A stretch of 64,000 bases of DNA from an uncultured Candidatus Binatia bacterium (GCA_965242525.1 OZ251459.1:1312001-1376000); one strand, 5' to 3'. Shown: positions 25,882 to 40,172, numbered from the stretch's first letter. Made by a program: numbers and translations. The notes: generated from the sequence alone by a model not told the origin.

Positions 25882-28800
25882 ATGAACAACCACGTGTCCA
25901 TCCACGGGGCGCTGCAAGACTTGGCCGCTGCGGTGACGGAGAAGACGACGCAACCCACCGCGGGGGAGCCCGAAGACCAGCTCCGCGCCCCGTTCGAAAC
26001 CTTCATGGCGGACGTCGCCGCGGCCTTGGGCCGGCGCGTCACCTGCACCGGCGAGACGCCGCTGCCGGACCGGCTCGGCCGGCCCGACTACGCGGTTCAC
26101 GGCAACGGCCTGCTCGTCGGCTACGTGGAGATCAAGGCCCCGGGCACGGGCGCTGACGCAGCCCGTTTCAAGGGCCGCAACCGCCAACAGTTCCAGCGCT
26201 TTTCGGCGATCCCCAACCTCCTCTACACCGACGGCAACCAATGGGCGCTGTACCGGGGCGGCGAACGGGCGGGAGGCGTGGTCCGGCTTTCGGGGGATGT
26301 GGCCCGTGACGGCCGGCACGCCGCGGCGGTGGAGGACGCTCCCGGCGTCGAGCGCCTGGTGCGGGACTTCCTGTCGTGGGAGCCGCTCCTGCCCCTGGAC
26401 GGCAAGGGCCGCATGGACCTCCGGCGCTTCGCCGACCTGCTGGCCCCCCTGTGCCGGATGCTGCGGGACGACGTGGCCGACGCCCTCGCCGACCCGGCCT
26501 CCCCTCTCGTTCACTTGGCCGGGGACTGGCGGCAACTGCTGTTCCCTCACGCCTCGGACGTCCAGTTCGCCGACGCCTACGCCCAGACCGTCGCCTTCGC
26601 CCTGCTGCTGGGGCGCAGCGAGGGGGCGGACCCGTTGACGCTGGAAGGGGCCCAGGCCGCCCTCGCCGCACAGCACGGCCTGCTCTCCCGCGCCCTGCAA
26701 GTCCTGACCGACCCGGGCGTGCGGGCGGAGATGAGCGCGTCCCTGGACCTGCTGCTGCGGGTCCTCGCAGTCGTGCCGCCCGCGGCGCTGGCCGGACCGC
26801 AGGACCCGTGGCTCTACTTCTACGAAGACTTCCTGGCGGCCTACGACCCCAAGCTGCGCAAGGACGCCGGGGCCTACTACACTCCGGTGGAAGTGGTCCG
26901 CGCTCAGGTGCGTCTGGTGGACGACCTGCTGGTCCATCGCCTGAACAGACGGCTGGGCTTTACGGAACCCGGCGTGGTCACGCTGGATCCGGCTGCAGGC
27001 ACGGGCACGTACCTGCTGGGGGTGGTCGAACACGCCCTGGGGCGGGTGGAAGCGGAACAGGGGACGGGCGCGGTGGCGGGACAAGCCGCGGAGTTGGCCA
27101 ACAACCTCTACGGCTTCGAATTGATGGCGGGGCCGTATGCGGTGAGCGAGTTGCGCGTCAGCCGCGCCTTGCGCGACCGGGGGGCATCGTCGGCCGACGC
27201 GGCGCGGGTCTATCTGACCGACACCCTGGAGAGCCCCCACGCGGAGCCGCCGCAACTGCCGCTGTTCCTCCGGCCCATCTCGGAGCAGCGCCGCAAGGCG
27301 CTTGCAGTGAAGCGTGAGACGCCGGTGCTGGTGTGTATCGGCAACCCGCCCTACGACCGGCACGAGGCCGCCACCCCGCACAACGGGGACCACACCGGCT
27401 CCTGGGTGCGATGGGGCGAGAACGGGGCGCTGCCGGCAAAGGCTTCTTCCTCGCGCGCCGCGGGCGCGGACGCCATCTTCCGGGACTTCCTCGATCCGGT
27501 GGTGGCAGCGGGCCGCGGCGTCCACCTCAAGAACCTGTACAACCTCTACGTCTATTTCTGGCGCTGGGCGCTGTGGAAGGTGTTCGAGCACGACACCGCC
27601 CGCGGGCCGGGCGTGGTGAGCTTCATCACCGCGTCGAGCTACCTCGACGGCGACGCCTTCCGGGGCATGCGCGAACACATGCGGCGGGTGTGCGATGAAG
27701 TGTGGATCCTGGACTTGGGCGGCGAGGGCCGTGGCACGCGCAAGAGCGACAACGTCTTCGCCATCCAGACGCCGGTGGCCATTGCGGTTGCGGCGCGCAC
27801 GGGCAAGGCGAAGGAGGACGAGCCCGCGAAGGTCCGCTACGCGCGCATCGACGGCACGCGCAGACAGAAGCTGGCTGCCCTCGACGCCATCGACGGTTTC
27901 CGGAAGGTGGCTTGGCAGGACTGCCCCAACGAGTGGCAGGCGGCGTTCCGTCCCGCGGGCAAAGGGGATTACTTCGCTTGGCCGCTGCTCACCGACCTGA
28001 TGCCGTGGCAGCATTCGGGCGTCCAGTTGAAACGCACTTGGCCCATCGCGCCGGATGCGGACACGCTGGAACGCCGTTGGCGAGCGCTGCTCGCAGCTTC
28101 GGGCGCGAACCGGACCGCGGCGTTCAGGGAAACACGCGACCGCAAGGTCTCGTCGGAATGCCCCCCGCTGTTATCGGGAGACGAGACGACGCCTATCGCC
28201 AGCCTGGGCCGTGACGCACCGACCCCGCGCATGGAACGCTATGCCTACCGGTCGTTCGACCGGCAGCGCCTCTTTCTGGATACGCGGCTGGCAGATTACC
28301 TGCGCCCCGCGCTGTGGCGCGCCCATGGCGAACGGCAAGTTTACGTGACCAGCCTCCTCAGCCAAGTCCTCGGCAACGGCCCGGCGCTCACCGCCTGTGC
28401 GCTGCTTCCCGACCTTCATCATTTCCCCGGCGGAAGCGGAAAGAGCATCGTTCCTCTCTACCGGACCGCAGACGCTTCGGAGGCCAACCTCCTGCCCGGC
28501 CTACAGGACCTCCTCGGCAAGACCCTTGGGCGCAAGGTCACTCCCGAACACTTCCTGGCCTACGTCTATGGCGTGCTGGCCCACCCGGCCTTTACGGCGC
28601 GGTTTTCCGAGGAACTGGAAACGCGCGATCTGCGGGTCCCGCTCACCAGGGACGCCGGGTTGTTCGAGCGGGTCCGCAGGACGGGCGCCCGCCTGTTGCG
28701 GTTGCACACCTACGGCGAACGCTTCGCCGGCGGGAGGCAACGCGGCCGGGTTCCCCGCGGCGCGGCCCGATGCGTCAGGGCCGTGCCCGGCGACCCTGCC

Positions 28801-29196
28801 AGCTATCCCGAAGCGTTCCGCTACGACGACGCGACACAGACGCTTCACGTGGGCGCGGGCGAGTTCGCGCCAGTCACGCCCGAGGTCCATGGGTTCGAGG
28901 TCTCCGGCCTCAAGGTGGTCCAATCCTGGCTCAAGTACCGCATGAAGGACCGGGGCGGCAAGAAGTCCTCGCCCCTGGACGCCATCCGCCCGGAGCGATG
29001 GACGCCGGGGTTCACCACCGAATTGCTGGAGTTGCTCTGGGTGCTGGAGGCCACCCTCGATAGCTACCCGGAACAGGCGCGCCTGCTCGACGCGGTGGTC
29101 GAAGGCCCCTGCTTCCGGGCCGACGAGTCGCCGCCCGTCCACGAGGCCATGAGGAAGCCGCCGGGCTCGGCCGAGGTTCCGGAGAGGCTGCTCTGA
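25882..29196 (+). CDS. Single-chain restriction-modification enzyme, type ISP-related without helicase (nuclease + N6-adenine MTase + ISP-type specificity domain)
   Basis: RPD...VEIK (PD-(D/E)XK), GAYYTP, LDPAAGTG (motif I), GNPPY (motif IV), YRSFDRQ and VVQSWLKYR. Confidence 0.85.
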   Translation: MNNHVSIHGALQDLAAAVTEKTTQPTAGEPEDQLRAPFETFMADVAAALGRRVTCTGETPLPDRLGRPDYAVHGNGLLVGYVEIKAPGTGADAARFKGRNRQQFQRFSAIPNLLYTDGNQWALYRGGERAGGVVRLSGDVARDGRHAAAVEDAPGVERLVRDFLSWEPLLPLDGKGRMDLRRFADLLAPLCRMLRDDVADALADPASPLVHLAGDWRQLLFPHASDVQFADAYAQTVAFALLLGRSEGADPLTLEGAQAALAAQHGLLSRALQVLTDPGVRAEMSASLDLLLRVLAVVPPAALAGPQDPWLYFYEDFLAAYDPKLRKDAGAYYTPVEVVRAQVRLVDDLLVHRLNRRLGFTEPGVVTLDPAAGTGTYLLGVVEHALGRVEAEQGTGAVAGQAAELANNLYGFELMAGPYAVSELRVSRALRDRGASSADAARVYLTDTLESPHAEPPQLPLFLRPISEQRRKALAVKRETPVLVCIGNPPYDRHEAATPHNGDHTGSWVRWGENGALPAKASSSRAAGADAIFRDFLDPVVAAGRGVHLKNLYNLYVYFWRWALWKVFEHDTARGPGVVSFITASSYLDGDAFRGMREHMRRVCDEVWILDLGGEGRGTRKSDNVFAIQTPVAIAVAARTGKAKEDEPAKVRYARIDGTRRQKLAALDAIDGFRKVAWQDCPNEWQAAFRPAGKGDYFAWPLLTDLMPWQHSGVQLKRTWPIAPDADTLERRWRALLAASGANRTAAFRETRDRKVSSECPPLLSGDETTPIASLGRDAPTPRMERYAYRSFDRQRLFLDTRLADYLRPALWRAHGERQVYVTSLLSQVLGNGPALTACALLPDLHHFPGGSGKSIVPLYRTADASEANLLPGLQDLLGKTLGRKVTPEHFLAYVYGVLAHPAFTARFSEELETRDLRVPLTRDAGLFERVRRTGARLLRLHTYGERFAGGRQRGRVPRGAARCVRAVPGDPASYPEAFRYDDATQTLHVGAGEFAPVTPEVHGFEVSGLKVVQSWLKYRMKDRGGKKSSPLDAIRPERWTPGFTTELLELLWVLEATLDSYPEQARLLDAVVEGPCFRADESPPVHEAMRKPPGSAEVPERLL

Positions 29197-36180: not shown

Positions 36181-36275
36181 ACGACTCTTTCGACCGGAGT
36201 CGAAAGTGGCTGCGACTTTTTTTGACCGTAGTCAAAAGTAGCCGCGACTTTTTTTGACTACGGTAGAAATTAGCT
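36181..36275. repeat. Three tandem ~32-bp units, each with a TTTTGAC-N4-GTCAAAA-type palindrome (operator-like)
   Basis: CTTTCGAC-CGGA-GTCGAAAG, TTTTGAC-CGTA-GTCAAAA and TTTTGAC-TACG-GTAGAAA, with centres exactly 32 bp apart. Confidence 0.85.
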
Positions 36276-36282
36276 GTATCCT
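36254..36282 (+). promoter_or_regulatory. sigma70 promoter, probably leaderless, for the AAA ATPase
   Basis: TTGACT-N17-TATCCT, with ATG 6 nt after the -10 and no room for an RBS. Confidence 0.7.
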
Positions 36283-36288
36283 TGAGAC

Positions 36289-37407
36289 ATGGCAGAGACG
36301 CCCCGCTACCTCTCCGGACAGGTCCTGTCCGACCTCCGCCGCAAGATGGTGTTCGTGGCGGGCCCCCGACAGGTGGGCAAGACCACCTTCGCGCGGAGCC
36401 TGCCCGGCGCCCCGGAGGGTTACCTCAACTGGGACGTGGCCGCGCACCGGCATCGCATCCTGCGGCGCGAACTGCCCCCGTCCGGCCTCTGGGTCTTCGA
36501 CGAGATCCACAAATACCGCCAGTGGCGCGGCTACCTCAAGGGCTTGTACGACGACCGCGGGGAGGGCCAACGGATCCTCGTGACCGGCAGCGGCCGGCTC
36601 GACCTCTACAGGTTCGGCGGCGACGCCCTGCAGGGGCGCTACCACCTGCTGCGGCTGCATCCCTTCTCCGTGGCCGAAGCGGGCGTGGGCACGCCCGCGG
36701 AGCTGCGCGACCTGCTGGAGCTCGGCGGCTTTCCCGAGCCCTGGCTGTCGGGCAGCCGCCGGGAAGCAAGGCGCTGGTCCCGGGAGTACCGGGCCCGGCT
36801 CGTGCGCGAGGAAGCGGCCACCCTCGAGCAGGTCCGGGACCTCGGCCAGTTGGAGCTGATGATGCTGGCCCTGCCCGAGAGGGTGGGCGCGCCGCTTTCC
36901 GTCAACGCCCTGCGCGAGGACTTGCAGGTGAGCCACAAGACCGCGGACGCCTGGCTCGGCGCCCTGGAGCGGCTGTACGCCATCTTCCGGCTGCCGCCGT
37001 TCGGCTCGCCCCGCCTGCGCGCGGTCAAGAAGCAGTGCAAGCACTACCACTTCGACTGGACCCTGGCGCCCGAAGACGGGGCGCGTTTCGAGAACCTCAC
37101 CGCCTGCCACCTGCTCAAGTGGGTCCACCACCAACAGGACACCGAGGGGTTGGACCTGGAGTTGCGCTACTTCCGCGACAAGGACGGCCGGGAAGTCGAT
37201 TTCGTCGTCGAGCAGCGGAGAACCCCGTCGCTGCTGGTCGAATGCAAGTGGTCCGACGCCCCTCCGGACCGAGGCCTCAAGTACCTGAAGGCAAGGTTCC
37301 CCAAGGCCGAGGCATGGCAGGTCTCCGCCATCGGCGTGAAGGACTACGTAACCCCGGAAGGAATCCGCGTAGCCCCCGCACTGGCGCTGTTGTCCGGGCT
37401 GGCGTAG
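36289..37407 (+). CDS. AAA_14 + DUF4143 ATPase with C-terminal PD-(D/E)XK-like motif
   Basis: GPRQVGKTT, FDEIHK, VTGSG, GGFPE, FENL and YFRDKDGREVDFVV...LVECK. Confidence 0.9.
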   Translation: MAETPRYLSGQVLSDLRRKMVFVAGPRQVGKTTFARSLPGAPEGYLNWDVAAHRHRILRRELPPSGLWVFDEIHKYRQWRGYLKGLYDDRGEGQRILVTGSGRLDLYRFGGDALQGRYHLLRLHPFSVAEAGVGTPAELRDLLELGGFPEPWLSGSRREARRWSREYRARLVREEAATLEQVRDLGQLELMMLALPERVGAPLSVNALREDLQVSHKTADAWLGALERLYAIFRLPPFGSPRLRAVKKQCKHYHFDWTLAPEDGARFENLTACHLLKWVHHQQDTEGLDLELRYFRDKDGREVDFVVEQRRTPSLLVECKWSDAPPDRGLKYLKARFPKAEAWQVSAIGVKDYVTPEGIRVAPALALLSGLA

Positions 37408-37557
37408 GGACCGTCCCCGCGTAAGCGGAGAAGCCAGGCTCACCTGGTTCGCCTGCTATTGCTGGTGCGGATCGTCCCCGCGTAAGCGGAGAAGCCCCGG
37501 GCGGCGCCGCGGACATGGACCCTGGTTGCGGATTGGCCCTGCGTAAGCGGAGAAGCC
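37407..37557 (-). CRISPR. Orphan type I-E-like mini CRISPR array: three 29-bp repeats, two 32-bp spacers
   Basis: Repeats at 37407-37435, 37468-37496 and 37529-37557 (period 61). Minus-strand consensus GGCTTCTCCGCTTACGCGGGGACGATCCG has a 7-bp stem and TTAC loop. Spacers are unrelated to each other. No cas genes in the window. Confidence 0.75.
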
Positions 37558-37605
37558 GGTAGCGGGCAACGGCGCTTGCCGTCGTTCCCGCAAAAAACCC
37601 CGCAC

Positions 37606-37634
37606 CGTCATTCCCGCGAAAGCGGGAATCCACT
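37606..37634 (+). repeat. REP-like (dRS3-like) palindrome
   Basis: CGTCATTCCCGCGAAAGCGGGAATCCACT, the exact reverse complement of 39216-39244. Confidence 0.85.
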
Positions 37635-37685
37635 TTGGTCTCGTTGTATGAACCTCTCCGGGTTGGATACTCTTCTCGATCCATT

Positions 37686-37748
37686 TTCCCTCACCCTGAC
37701 CCCCATACCCGTTCGTCCTGAGCGTAGCGAAGCGGAGTCGAAGGACGC
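37686..37748 (+). repeat. Repeat family B copy
   Basis: 63 bp with 3 mismatches to the reverse complement of 39023-39085. Confidence 0.85.
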
Positions 37749-37840
37749 GCTCTAGCGCCTATGGGGTTGGGGCAGGGCTTCCGTGCAAGCCGATCCACTC
37801 AAAAGCCGGAAGAGCCGAGGATAGCAGGCATGGGCAGGCG

Positions 37841-39016
37841 TCAGGAGGTTTGCAGGTCGTCAAGCACTTTGGCGAGCCTTGCCGCCAATGTCTCTACATG
37901 CGTCGCCACGTCATGGTGCGCGATTAACCGAGCCCTCACTGTGTCAGGGCGACGGTGCTGCTCGCCGAAAGGATCATTTTCGAACTGGCTGACCCAATCA
38001 TCCAGGATCTTCAGGCGCTTGGGATGAAGCAGCGAGGCGTAGGCAGGGGAGTCCTTGGATGCGCTTTCTCCGAATGCGTAATCGCGCAACCCCATCCAGA
38101 AAGGGCTGTCGGAAGGCGGGTAGAACCAGGCCACTGTGATGAGCCAAGGATAGCTCTCTTCAGGAGGTTTCACCCTGATAGAGAAGCCTTTATCACCTGG
38201 TACGACTTTGGCTCCATGCTCCTCGGCGATCCCAAAGAGCCGTTGGGTTGCACGACGCACCTCATCACCGGGCAAGTTGTCCAAGAAGGAGTTGCGGTCG
38301 ATCTTCGTGCGCTTGTGGGACCCGTCACGCTTGCTCGGCGAGGCCGCCGTGTGTCCAATGACGCGAGGCACGAGCGTGCTGCGCGCCTCGGACTCGCCTT
38401 TGAACTGCTTGACCTCGACGGCCAGCACCTCGATGTTGTCACGCAGTTGCGCGTTCAGGAACTCGACGATGCGGGCGAGTTCAGTGGGTATGGCGTCTGC
38501 CACGAACAGCAAGCGCAGGCGTTTGGCGTCGAGGTTCCTGGCGACTTTGCGCCAAAACGCCTCTGCGTCCAGTTCTTCGTCCTCGGGCTGGAGCAGGTCT
38601 TGCAGCGCCTTGTCTGTGGCTGCGGAATCTCCCCAAGTCTTCTCGAAGGACTGGCGCAAGGTTTCCGGTGTCCAGAACTGCGAGGCGTTTGCGGCATAGT
38701 CCAGCATCTGGCCGACGACCTCACGCCGTATCTGTGTGTTCGAACCCCGCTTCACCTCGACGAGCGTCGGCACGGCGTCCTGGTCAACGAACAGGTGGTC
38801 CAGCGACCAGCGGTCGGACTCGCCGGACGCGGCCGGTACGCCCATCTCGCGCTTGACGAGCAGCCATCGCCGGGGGTTGCCCGGACTCATTTGTTCTCCG
38901 TCCAGCAAATGGGGGTACTCGGCAAGGAGTTTCTGCATGTGGTCTTCCGACTCGAACCGCTGTTCTTCCATCGACTCCAGGTTGTCCCCATCCAGGATGT
39001 AGATGCGTTCGGCCAT
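37841..39016 (-). CDS. PD-(D/E)XK (NucS/DUF91-like) nuclease-domain protein with unknown C-terminal region
   Basis: E..MQ.LL..YP.LL...LLVKRE...LDHLFVD...LVEVKR...GQMLDYA. Visibly more AT-rich than its neighbours. Confidence 0.75.
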   Translation of the reverse strand: MAERIYILDGDNLESMEEQRFESEDHMQKLLAEYPHLLDGEQMSPGNPRRWLLVKREMGVPAASGESDRWSLDHLFVDQDAVPTLVEVKRGSNTQIRREVVGQMLDYAANASQFWTPETLRQSFEKTWGDSAATDKALQDLLQPEDEELDAEAFWRKVARNLDAKRLRLLFVADAIPTELARIVEFLNAQLRDNIEVLAVEVKQFKGESEARSTLVPRVIGHTAASPSKRDGSHKRTKIDRNSFLDNLPGDEVRRATQRLFGIAEEHGAKVVPGDKGFSIRVKPPEESYPWLITVAWFYPPSDSPFWMGLRDYAFGESASKDSPAYASLLHPKRLKILDDWVSQFENDPFGEQHRRPDTVRARLIAHHDVATHVETLAARLAKVLDDLQTS

Positions 39017-39022
39017 GTTCTT

Positions 39023-39120
39023 GCGCCCTTCGACTCCGCTGCGCTACGCTCAGGACGAACGGGGATGGGGGTCAGGGTGAGGGAATCCACCCTCCATGTC
39101 TCGATTGTCCGGATGTTCCT
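39023..39120 (-). repeat. Repeat family B copy ending 6 nt upstream of the nuclease ATG
   Basis: Reverse-complement match to 37686-37748 and 32629-32779. Confidence 0.85.
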
Positions 39121-39215
39121 GCCGTTTCATACCCGCTCCCTCCTTCGTGCCCACTTTCTTGTTGGACAATACCCCCTTGTCCTCCTGGAACAGGGAATAA
39201 ACCAGATGTTCCCCA

Positions 39216-39244
39216 AGTGGATTCCCGCTTTCGCGGGAATGACG
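39216..39244 (-). repeat. REP-like (dRS3-like) palindrome, inverted copy
   Basis: AGTGGATTCCCGCTTTCGCGGGAATGACG. Confidence 0.85.
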
Positions 39245-39300
39245 AGGTGGGCTTTCGCAGGAACGACGGCAAGCACAGTGGATTCCCGTTGCCCGCTACC

Positions 39301-39329
39301 GGCTTCCCTGCTTACGCGGGGATAAGCTC
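39301..39329 (+). CRISPR. Isolated type I-E-like repeat in opposite orientation (possible degenerate second repeat near 39361-39386)
   Basis: GGCTTCCCTGCTTACGCGGGGATAAGCTC, preceded by the same 15 nt (CCGTTGCCCGCTACC) that precede the 37529-37557 repeat on the minus strand. Confidence 0.55.
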
Positions 39330-39467
39330 GCGGGCACGAGCTGCGCGGCGCCTGCCTCCCGGCTTACTGCCTGCCGGGGCAGGCTCCGCAGGCGCGGTGG
39401 AACGACGGCTTGACCCCTGCCGCTCCCCTTTCCCCCCTGCCTCACCCACACGAAACCCGGAAGCGCC

Positions 39468-40172
39468 CTATCCTCCGGGATGGGCCGCGGCTTCGGCCGG
39501 TTCCAGGTCGAGGGCGCGGCTCACGGCTTCCAGGGCGGCCTGGTTGCTGGTGACCACGGGCAGGTCGTAGGCCTGGCGCAGTTGCGGCAGGGTCGCCACC
39601 GCCTGGTAGTTGGTGCAGGAGATGAACAGGGCGTCCACCTGCGGGCGGGGGCCCAGCTTCTCCCGGGCGAAGGCCAGGATCTCCCGCGGCTCCACCAGCG
39701 CCAAGTTGAAGTTGACGCTGATGCCCATGCCGTGGATGGACGCCACCTCGATGCCGTCGTCCTCCACGCTGGCCTTGATGCGGACGTTGAGTTCCTCGAT
39801 GTAGGGGGTCAGCACCGCGATGCGCCGCGCCTCCAGGACCGCCAGCATGCTCCGCACCGACTCGATGACGCTGACGGTGGGCTTGCCGGTGACTTCGGAT
39901 ATCCGGCGGCACAGTTCCGCGTCGTAGGCGTTGCCGCGCAGCGCCCCGGCGCTGGTGCAGCCGAACACCACCACGTCCGGCCGGGCGGTGGCCACGTCCC
40001 TGGCCGCGGGGAGCGTGTGCCGGTCCAGCATGGCCTCCTCGCCCTCGACGGTGGTGGCTTCCATGTACATGCGCCCGGTGTGGACCGTGGCCGCCGGCGG
40101 CAGGCAGCGGTAGAAGTCCACCTCCATGACCGTGTTGGAGGAAGGGATGAGCAGTCCGACCCGATGACCCAA
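39468..40172 (-). CDS. Maleate cis-trans isomerase/Asp-Glu racemase family protein
   Basis: GLLIPSSNTVME, FGCTS, LTPY, ISCTN and TSNQA, with both catalytic Cys present. Confidence 0.88.
   Translation of the reverse strand: MGHRVGLLIPSSNTVMEVDFYRCLPPAATVHTGRMYMEATTVEGEEAMLDRHTLPAARDVATARPDVVVFGCTSAGALRGNAYDAELCRRISEVTGKPTVSVIESVRSMLAVLEARRIAVLTPYIEELNVRIKASVEDDGIEVASIHGMGISVNFNLALVEPREILAFAREKLGPRPQVDALFISCTNYQAVATLPQLRQAYDLPVVTSNQAALEAVSRALDLEPAEAAAHPGG

Follow-up and report, generated by a model that had tools for sequence, protein, structure and literature searches.

A nuclease gene between inverted composite repeats, beside an orphan CRISPR-type mini-array that may have grown on a REP-like hairpin, in an uncultured Candidatus Binatia bacterium

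Clusters of repetitive extragenic palindromic (REP) sequences, among them REPINs and bacterial interspersed mosaic elements (BIMEs), and the miniature inverted-repeat transposable elements (MITEs) derived from insertion sequences occur in hundreds of intergenic copies and form hairpins, inverted doublets, and composite mosaics. The same features are found at the locus described here, a lone nuclease gene set between inverted copies of a composite repeat with a mini-array of CRISPR type (short palindromic repeats that are clustered and regularly interspaced) on its left side, although the Y1 transposase family (REP-associated tyrosine transposase, RAYT) gave no match in this genome. The locus lies in a stretch of 64,000 nucleotides (nt) from an uncultured Candidatus Binatia bacterium (GCA_965242525.1, OZ251459.1:1312001-1376000), which is referred to as the window and in whose numbering positions are given unless they carry the prefix C1. 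A further likeness is to the dRS3 repeats, Neisseria intergenic mosaic elements (NIMEs), and minimal mobile elements of Neisseria, in the portion of PMC1797815 that deals with them. The REP core here fits the dRS3 consensus ATTCCC-N8-GGGAAT, and in both cases repeat clusters surround a small accessory cassette between conserved genes, with content that varies among relatives. The difference from the Neisseria system as described there is that the present host belongs to a different phylum-level group (a judgement from runs that bear the label sponge metagenome), and that no IS110-type recombinase was found, the IS110 transposase family being absent from the genome.

The mini-array itself invites comparison with two kinds of short array. 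Off-target spacer integration yields neo-CRISPR arrays (Nivala et al. 2018, as cited in a passage of bioRxiv 10.1101/148544), and the array resembles those outlined in that passage in being short, distant from a cas locus, built on a duplicated repeat-like local sequence, and supplied with a self-derived spacer. It would differ in its seed, here a REP/dRS3-like hairpin within a dispersed element, and in that the integrase would have disappeared from the genome. With the orphan or degenerate self-targeting arrays of Stern et al. (2010), to the extent that PMC8616872 recounts them, it shares the lack of cognate cas genes, few and decayed repeats, and a spacer of chromosomal identity, whereas its repeat is REP-like and turned up in none of the other genomes searched, and 1.7 kb away there is a single inverted unit bearing the same flank.

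Our favored reading, held tentatively and with rather less than even confidence, is that a nuclease gene stands between inverted composite repeats together with an orphan, ectopically grown mini-CRISPR at a recombination-prone spot. The components on which this reading turns are listed below.

37407-37557, minus strand: CRISPR-type mini-array, period 61/61
37407-37435, 37468-37496, and 37529-37557: left units, 29-31 nt, start-to-start distances 61 and 61
37436-37467 and 37497-37528: left spacers, namely spacer 1 (from BacA/UppP) and spacer 2
37558-37594, no strand: left flank, a 15-nt block (37558-37572) and an 18-nt half-REP (37574-37591)
37595-37640, no strand: left REP, a dRS3-like hairpin (arm 37595-37638)
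37641-37752, plus strand: left linker (37641-37685) and repeat B (37686-37752), both parts of the composite element
37781-39029, minus strand: nuclease cassette, an open reading frame (ORF) of 391 amino acids (37841-39016) with short flanks, inverted relative to the sister species G023
39023-39211, minus strand: right repeat B (39023-39085) and right linker (39086-39211), the latter with an extra insertion of ~85 nt
39212-39300, no strand: right REP (39212-39255), half-REP (39257-39274), 11 nt (39275-39285), and 15-nt block (39286-39300)
39301-39329, plus strand: single inverted CRISPR-like unit with a 7-bp stem

The left side has the geometry of a CRISPR array, with three 29-nt units separated by two unrelated 32-nt spacers at a period of 61/61, while the right arm carries one unit only. 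A preliminary description of this DNA had reported a single type I-E-like repeat on the left; the unit is there, as one of three repeats that enclose two spacers. A degenerate pattern of the unit finds four sites genome-wide, all at this locus. Spacer 1 is identical to C1:1391370-1391401 (32 of 32 nt, and 35 of 35 with flanks), a site in the 3'-terminal part of a BacA/UppP gene (PF02673, E 1.1e-70) about 42 kb away. When 28 genomes of the genus were searched, this genome (G000) included, the sole matches at E <= 0.001 fell on the spacer-1 part of the query and came from 18 of the 27 other genomes, with 88-97% identity among the matches listed; three weak matches outside that part had E 0.0025-0.008. 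As spacer 1 is exact at home and 88-97% identical in relatives, it was evidently copied from the chromosome of this lineage itself. For spacer 2 there was no exact match in a viral contig collection and, within the genome, no near-full one. In the BacA/UppP gene, the protospacer of spacer 1 is situated in the last ~25 codons, and on the outward-reading strand the trinucleotide in front of it ends in CG, the last two bases of the repeat.

RNA folding gives the units a direction. The left units fold with a continuous 7-bp stem on the minus strand alone (-12.0 vs -9.2 kcal/mol), and the right unit does so on the plus strand (-15.1 vs -11.3 kcal/mol). Because the continuous stem forms in that orientation alone, the units point outward and carry the shared flank on their 5' side, and the repeats thus face outward as the preliminary description had proposed. 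The left array had at one point been placed on the plus strand, which was dropped after the folds favored the minus strand, and a candidate second right-hand repeat at 39361 (spacing 60) was rejected, as it has ~45% identity to the unit and lies within a dispersed element described below (element X). The flank next to the units is GC-rich and built of REP fragments, and a scan that covered one promoter type found 0 sigma-70-like sites in it.

The unit also resembles the REP sequence of this genome, with 21-22 matched positions and an alignment score reached by 0 of 5000 shuffles. A third copy of the flank module (C1:1708290-1708400) contains only a decayed counterpart of the unit. Clusters of full REPs are rare and irregular, with one locus genome-wide (spacings 63 and 92), and the usual REP tails consist of tandem half-REPs at a ~25-nt period, without unique inserts. 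Examples of REPs with such tails (period ~24-27 nt) lie at C1:638285, 653691, 1080700, 3430850, 3579625, and 3770311, and a REP at C1:2135069 has a tandem half-REP tail with a 73-nt period. Unique inserts of 32 nt, each with a flanking duplication of 29 nt, are what Cas1-Cas2 integration leaves as its footprint. Ectopic integration at a REP-like hairpin is therefore favored, since the inserts are unique and 32 nt long, they are accompanied by 29-nt duplications, and one of them is an exact gene fragment.

The sequence of events may be pictured as follows. Two inverted copies of a composite element would have come to bracket the nuclease gene, and the outermost REP-like hairpin, which is single on the right arm, would have been multiplied to three on the left by two 32-nt inserts. 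It is possible that the REP-like hairpin served as a pseudo-repeat for a type I-E/I-F-like adaptation module, since lost, which so produced a neo-CRISPR, with one insert copied from the cell's own uppP; the array would now be orphan and decaying. The flip in orientation of the cassette may have arisen by ordinary recombination among the flanking inverted repeats or by independent re-insertion of the cassette, and a dedicated inversion system was probably not involved.

The genome retains CRISPR-Cas systems of other kinds. Two cas1 genes are resident, one an I-G fused Cas4g/Cas1g and the other I-B-like, and there are two resident arrays, the first with a 28-nt repeat (period 63-69) and the second with a 36-nt repeat (period 72-78). 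These loci are situated at C1:753473-754339 and 434473-435306; the Cas4g/Cas1g gene adjoins an array of ~141 repeats and the I-B-like Cas1 gene one of ~54 repeats. The families Cas7e, Cas6e, Cse1, and Cas2e (PF09344, PF08798, PF09481, and PF09707) gave no match in this 98.96%-complete assembly, in a search whose controls gave a signal in Thermus alone and whose sensitivity is accordingly limited. No array with the repeat of the mini-array was found in 123 genomes of the order, where single matches at 2-3 mismatches occurred and a reversed control pattern was at least as frequent, or in a contig collection of one genome per species, where 15 loci gave one match each. A search of Rfam at E values up to 10 returned no CRISPR family and only chance miRNA-like rows.

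The arms were examined by a module-by-module search of the whole 4.23-Mb assembly. All mirrored modules of the preliminary description are present at the positions it gave. The 15-nt flank is identical in both arms (37558-37572 and 39286-39300), and an inverted-repeat search pairs the REP arms (37595-37638 with 39212-39255; 44 nt, 89% complementary), the repeat B copies (37686-37748 with 39023-39085; 63 nt, 95%), and two remaining stretches (36 nt at 92% and 27 nt at 85%). In a whole-genome search the outer inverted match is above chance (E 2.7e-9), and inverted repeats flanking a segment, as here the nuclease segment, are a feature of invertons.

The same modules are, for the most part, dispersed through the genome. 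Repeat B has 807 blastn matches at E <= 1e-4, of which 230 are at least 55 nt long (109 plus, 121 minus), and the exact REP core TTCCCGC-N4-GCGGGAA, which agrees with the dRS3 consensus as quoted in the corresponding portion of PMC1797815, has 230 occurrences. Half-REP, REP, linker, and repeat B follow each other in the same order at five other loci with 71-76% identity (C1:607726, 2792296, 2320334, 3073001, and 3103984), and REP plus half-REP recurs at at least 10 loci with 90-93% identity. The exact 15-nt flank is confined to the two arms genome-wide, apart from a diverged copy at C1:1708290-1708400, where 15-nt flank, 10 nt, half-REP, and REP are present without an intact unit. Each arm is therefore mainly one copy of a composite REP/MITE element, because its modules recur in order elsewhere, and the mirror order is much less improbable than it appears, because REP and repeat B are genome-wide families. 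Alignment of the copies identifies two stretches formerly regarded as unrelated (37641-37685 and 39086-39211) as diverged linker parts of this element. The mundane alternative raised at the outset, a composite MITE present twice, thus proved largely right as regards the section that runs from half-REP through repeat B, with at least five other full copies, while the proposal of a new class of element with CRISPR-repeat-tipped arms was not sustained, as the arms are dispersed composite copies and the tips are confined to this locus.

The suggestion that such arms pair around cargo likewise failed once copies and orientations were counted. Consecutive repeat B pairs 1-2 kb apart (n=100) comprise 32 +-, 25 -+, 24 ++, and 19 --, so that inverted bracketing of a gene-sized segment is common and not enriched. 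At distances below 500 nt, -+ and +- pairs number 80 vs 13, with direct pairs dominating below 150 nt, and at 3-10 kb +- and -+ pairs number 77 vs 35. This pattern suggests a doublet structure, and a dependence of orientation on gene direction or replication. Within the 138 nt outside the right unit lies element X, which has four further copies in the genome, and the right CRISPR-like unit occupies the place of the REP that precedes element X in those four copies. The five copies (39344-39463 and C1:2068611, 3141876, 14633, and 1115331) are 81-88% identical, and elsewhere element X always has a REP and a GGGTGGGCG-type tail in front of it. The extra ~85 nt in the right linker (39127-39211) stand between near-identical 11-nt direct repeats, GGAACATCTGG and GGAACATCCGG (minus strand), and look like a duplication or an insertion scar.

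The gene between the arms is AT-richer than its surroundings, as first noted, with a guanine-cytosine (GC) content of 60.5% vs ~69.5% in its neighbors, and its ATG lies 6 nt from repeat B. Its 391-residue product has no Pfam or NCBIfam match. Residues 8-226 match the PADLOC family PDC-S11 (E 1.3e-12; profile positions 10-194 of 358), and the family is large, with 7942 of 8000 scored candidates at E <= 0.001. The AlphaFold model (predicted local distance difference test score, pLDDT, 84) has as its best match the nuclease domain of Pyrococcus NucS (2vld_B; Z 11.0, root-mean-square deviation 2.4 Å, 108 residues aligned), the next match having Z 7.9. Foldseek gives weak E-values, with NucS at probability 0.99 and E 0.012, and a profile search of the sequences in the Protein Data Bank with the nuclease returned no useful match. 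The C-terminal domain (239-391) resembles YdhG/YjbR/MotA-C-like folds (Z ~6-7.5). D73, D78, E87, and K89 are invariant in 39 nuclease sequences, and the identification as a PD-(D/E)XK nuclease is upheld by the NucS fold and by the motif residues. Across 87 homologue loci the gene usually stands alone; a conserved operon with the ATPase gene that lies upstream of it here was considered and rejected, the ATPase being adjacent at 1 of the 87. Metagenome contigs searched with the nuclease contained distant relatives alone, at <=56% identity. PDC-S11 has been named Madara, a modification-dependent defence with a NucS-like domain, in the part of bioRxiv 10.64898/2026.09.05.749240 that introduces it. 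The present protein is like Madara in its PDC-S11 profile match, its best structural match, and its usually solitary gene, and appears to differ in that about half of the PDC-S11 profile is matched and that the C-terminal domain is predicted to have another fold. It is plausible that the gene is a stand-alone NucS-like defence gene and a relative of Madara/PDC-S11.

The genes and repeats around the mini-array and the cassette enter into the comparison with other genomes:

36188-36283, no strand: three 32-nt tandem repeats (tandem repeat search), 5' of the ATPase gene, left edge of the islet common to G023
36289-37407, plus strand: AAA_14/DUF4143 ATPase gene, PADLOC candidate PDC-S01, whose stop codon abuts the mini-array
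39344-39463, plus strand: dispersed element X, with four other genome copies
39468-40172, minus strand: Amdase/Asp_Glu_race-family isomerase gene, the conserved right neighbor

The sister species G023 has an orthologue of the ATPase (95% amino-acid identity), followed after ~100 nt by the nuclease gene in the same orientation, and its locus contains no CRISPR-like units and no repeat B. The tandem repeats at 36188-36283 are also found 5' of its ATPase orthologue and may represent an operator or the end of an element. Homology with G023 starts at 36219, and the right-arm stretch up to ~39288 is common to both. Blastn aligns window positions 37781-39029 in inverted orientation (82.6% over 1262 nt) and the flanks of the block collinearly (92.5% and 93.7%), and the inner ends of repeat B delimit the inverted block. 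Synonymous divergence (dS) from G023 is highest in the nuclease (0.42), followed by the ATPase (0.21), the isomerase (0.12), and the gene after it (0.10). In a tree, the G023 nuclease groups with four metagenomic homologues and the nuclease of this genome falls outside that group. At its left edge the islet marks a break in synteny with G023, in whose chromosome the DUF6282 orthologue maps to 0.49 Mb and the ATPase to 3.94 Mb; around the circle, DUF6282 is ~0.56 Mb from the islet. The inversion, the excess dS, the tree, and the break in synteny together indicate that the site is recombination-prone, and on sequence comparison the nuclease cassette may have been flipped or replaced. As indirect signs, the excess dS and the tree may bear on exchange by transformation and homologous recombination. 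Models with a single inversion from a G023-like ancestor were checked by hand and set aside, as none reproduces the observed REP orientations.

The isomerase gene was found in 26 of 27 other genomes of the genus. In all 12 of the others that were fetched, DUF6282 and the isomerase are direct neighbors and the ATPase-nuclease islet is missing from the site; among the genus genomes, the ATPase adjoins the isomerase in G000 and G023 only. Among related genomes the flanking genes are conserved and the cassette content differs, the islet being limited to these two genomes, in which the orientation of the nuclease cassette differs.

The idea of an invertible or exchangeable slot was weighed against neighboring genes, other loci, and metagenomic contigs. 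A scan of 20 ORFs, picked mostly by codon-position GC, between 21 and 52 kb of the window revealed metabolic and housekeeping genes and a Type ISP restriction enzyme, and in agreement with the preliminary description no transposase or cas gene; no recombinase or invertase was among them either, serine and tyrosine recombinases having been looked for in this interval and not genome-wide. The Type ISP restriction-modification gene (25882-29193; Type_ISP_C, N6_Mtase) lies 8 kb upstream, and with it the neighborhood holds further defence genes. A second slot combining the unit with the exact 15-nt flank is not present in the genome, and bracketing inverted repeats were found at 0 of 6 other nuclease loci of the genus. 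Four runs from four studies, some with the label sponge metagenome, yielded contigs that span the inner junctions in the orientation of the window alone, namely X5 record 10 and X6 record 19 (37723/4-38777), X6 record 20 (38756-39064), and X1 record 6 (38145-39066). No strand change occurs among the 15 joints listed of 75. Most joints stem from other repeat copies, since they lie at REP or repeat B and their sides are short. The X6 pieces listed leave 37628-37722 uncovered, and at least 8270 further X6 pieces exist. The run data are consensus contigs, in which rare inversion variants would therefore not show. The strain of run X5, which is ~2.7% divergent, carries the array and both arms, and its left arm includes 10 additional nt that the right arm also has.

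Several observations weigh against our reading of an ectopically grown array at a recombination-prone spot. The 29+32 geometry fits neither resident CRISPR system, so a lost integrase must be assumed. The shuffle test that links unit and REP is a weak null for two short GC-rich hairpins, and outward units with a shared 5' flank are also expected of two divergent true arrays with homologous leaders. In the X5 strain, spacer 1 differs at ~7 positions (2 single-base deletions, 3 substitutions, and one 2-nt insertion), whereas the X5 contig differs from the window by 57 letters plus 17 gap letters over 2128 nt, so that the spacer is diverging much faster than its surroundings. With regard to recombination, no single inversion worked out by hand leads from the arrangement in G023 to the present one, the repeat B copies share a longest perfect run of ~22 nt, which is marginal for RecA-type recombination, and lower codon bias (GC content at third codon positions 0.75 vs ~0.92) may contribute to a nuclease dS that is 2-4 times that of its neighbors. 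A serious rival is that the locus is the relic of a true type I-E-like system, in which two divergent arrays with homologous leader-proximal sequences lost the cas operon between them, perhaps under selection against the self-targeting uppP spacer, and the REP/MITE repeats and the nuclease arrived later. We regard this as unlikely, yet well worth serious consideration. The 29-nt repeats with 32-nt spacers would be its natural product, as would outward units whose 7-bp stem forms in that orientation alone and whose 15-nt flank is on the leader side, a distal left unit that is degenerate at its 3' end, and a uppP match that runs 2 nt into the last bases of the repeat; loss of cas genes between two arrays, or of systems via self-targeting, is moreover described in parts of PMC4489801 and PMC8616872. 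Against it stand the absence of any array with this repeat from the order genomes and the species collection, the lack of an Rfam CRISPR family, a GC-rich "leader" made of REP fragments with 0 promoter-like sites in the scan, a third flank copy elsewhere without a functional unit, the resemblance of the unit to the genome's own REP, the greatest decay in the leader-proximal left unit, and an empty site in 12 of 12 other genus genomes. We rank ectopic integration above a relic locus, and both would call for an integrase now missing from the genome.

Resemblance of the unit to REP, the fit of that REP to dRS3, the known dRS3 arrays, whose variable inter-repeat elements measure 19-214 bp (in the relevant part of PMC1797815), and the lack of cognate cas genes and of an Rfam CRISPR match would also suit an origin without any link to CRISPR, the units being a local NIME-like array of REP variants into which the uppP fragment came via templated repair or another non-Cas process. 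Such an origin would have to produce an exact 61/61 period and unique 32-nt inserts each with a 29-nt flanking duplication, of which one exactly reproduces 32 nt (35 with flanks) of a gene ~42 kb away, in a genome whose other REP clusters are irregular or consist of ~25-nt half-REP tandems, and we consider it quite improbable. Least probable of all, and in our estimation very unlikely, is a dedicated invertible or exchangeable defence-cargo slot whose arms would be recognized by a recombinase. Relative to G023 the cassette is inverted, in a block that ends at the inner repeat B ends, the nuclease dS of 0.42 exceeds the 0.10-0.21 of its neighbors, the G023 nuclease is nearer to four metagenomic homologues than to this one, synteny with G023 breaks at the islet edge, and dRS3 arrays have been proposed, in the same portion of PMC1797815, to promote exchange of adjacent genes in Neisseria. 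A slot of this kind is disfavored by the lack of recombinase, transposase, and cas families in the 20 neighboring ORFs and of IS110 and Y1 families in the genome, by contigs of four runs that show the window orientation alone with no strand change among the 15 joints listed, by the lack of a second slot with these tips, by brackets at 0 of 6 other nuclease loci, and by repeat B pairs that show no excess of inverted bracketing. What stands of the slot originally proposed is thus the inversion relative to G023, the excess dS, and the absence of the islet from 12 of 12 relatives; a recombinase, a second slot, and a second orientation in contigs did not emerge, and the cargo-slot reading is weakly supported.

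Two inverted copies of a dispersed composite repeat account for most of the apparently new architecture. What is left over as interesting is an orphan array, apparently grown on a REP-like hairpin and furnished with a self-derived spacer, beside a Madara-like cassette. In repeat-dense genomes, two composite MITE/REP copies can mimic a purpose-built cassette with arms, and such arm patterns need copy-number controls before they are called new mobile elements. The large family to which the nuclease belongs has no Pfam model, and kinship with the recently named Madara is plausible. A wider proposal, that REP/dRS3-type hairpins seed new CRISPR arrays via Cas1-Cas2 and that such clusters mark recombination-prone slots at which single defence genes are flipped or exchanged among lineages, in the manner proposed for NIME arrays and minimal mobile elements, seems to us improbable. 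If ectopic integration at a REP-like hairpin is true, the locus would be a natural example of the birth of a CRISPR array, with a self-derived spacer that has survived in a lineage without matching cas genes, and the seeding of arrays by REP hairpins would link REP-type and CRISPR repeats mechanistically and possibly in evolution.

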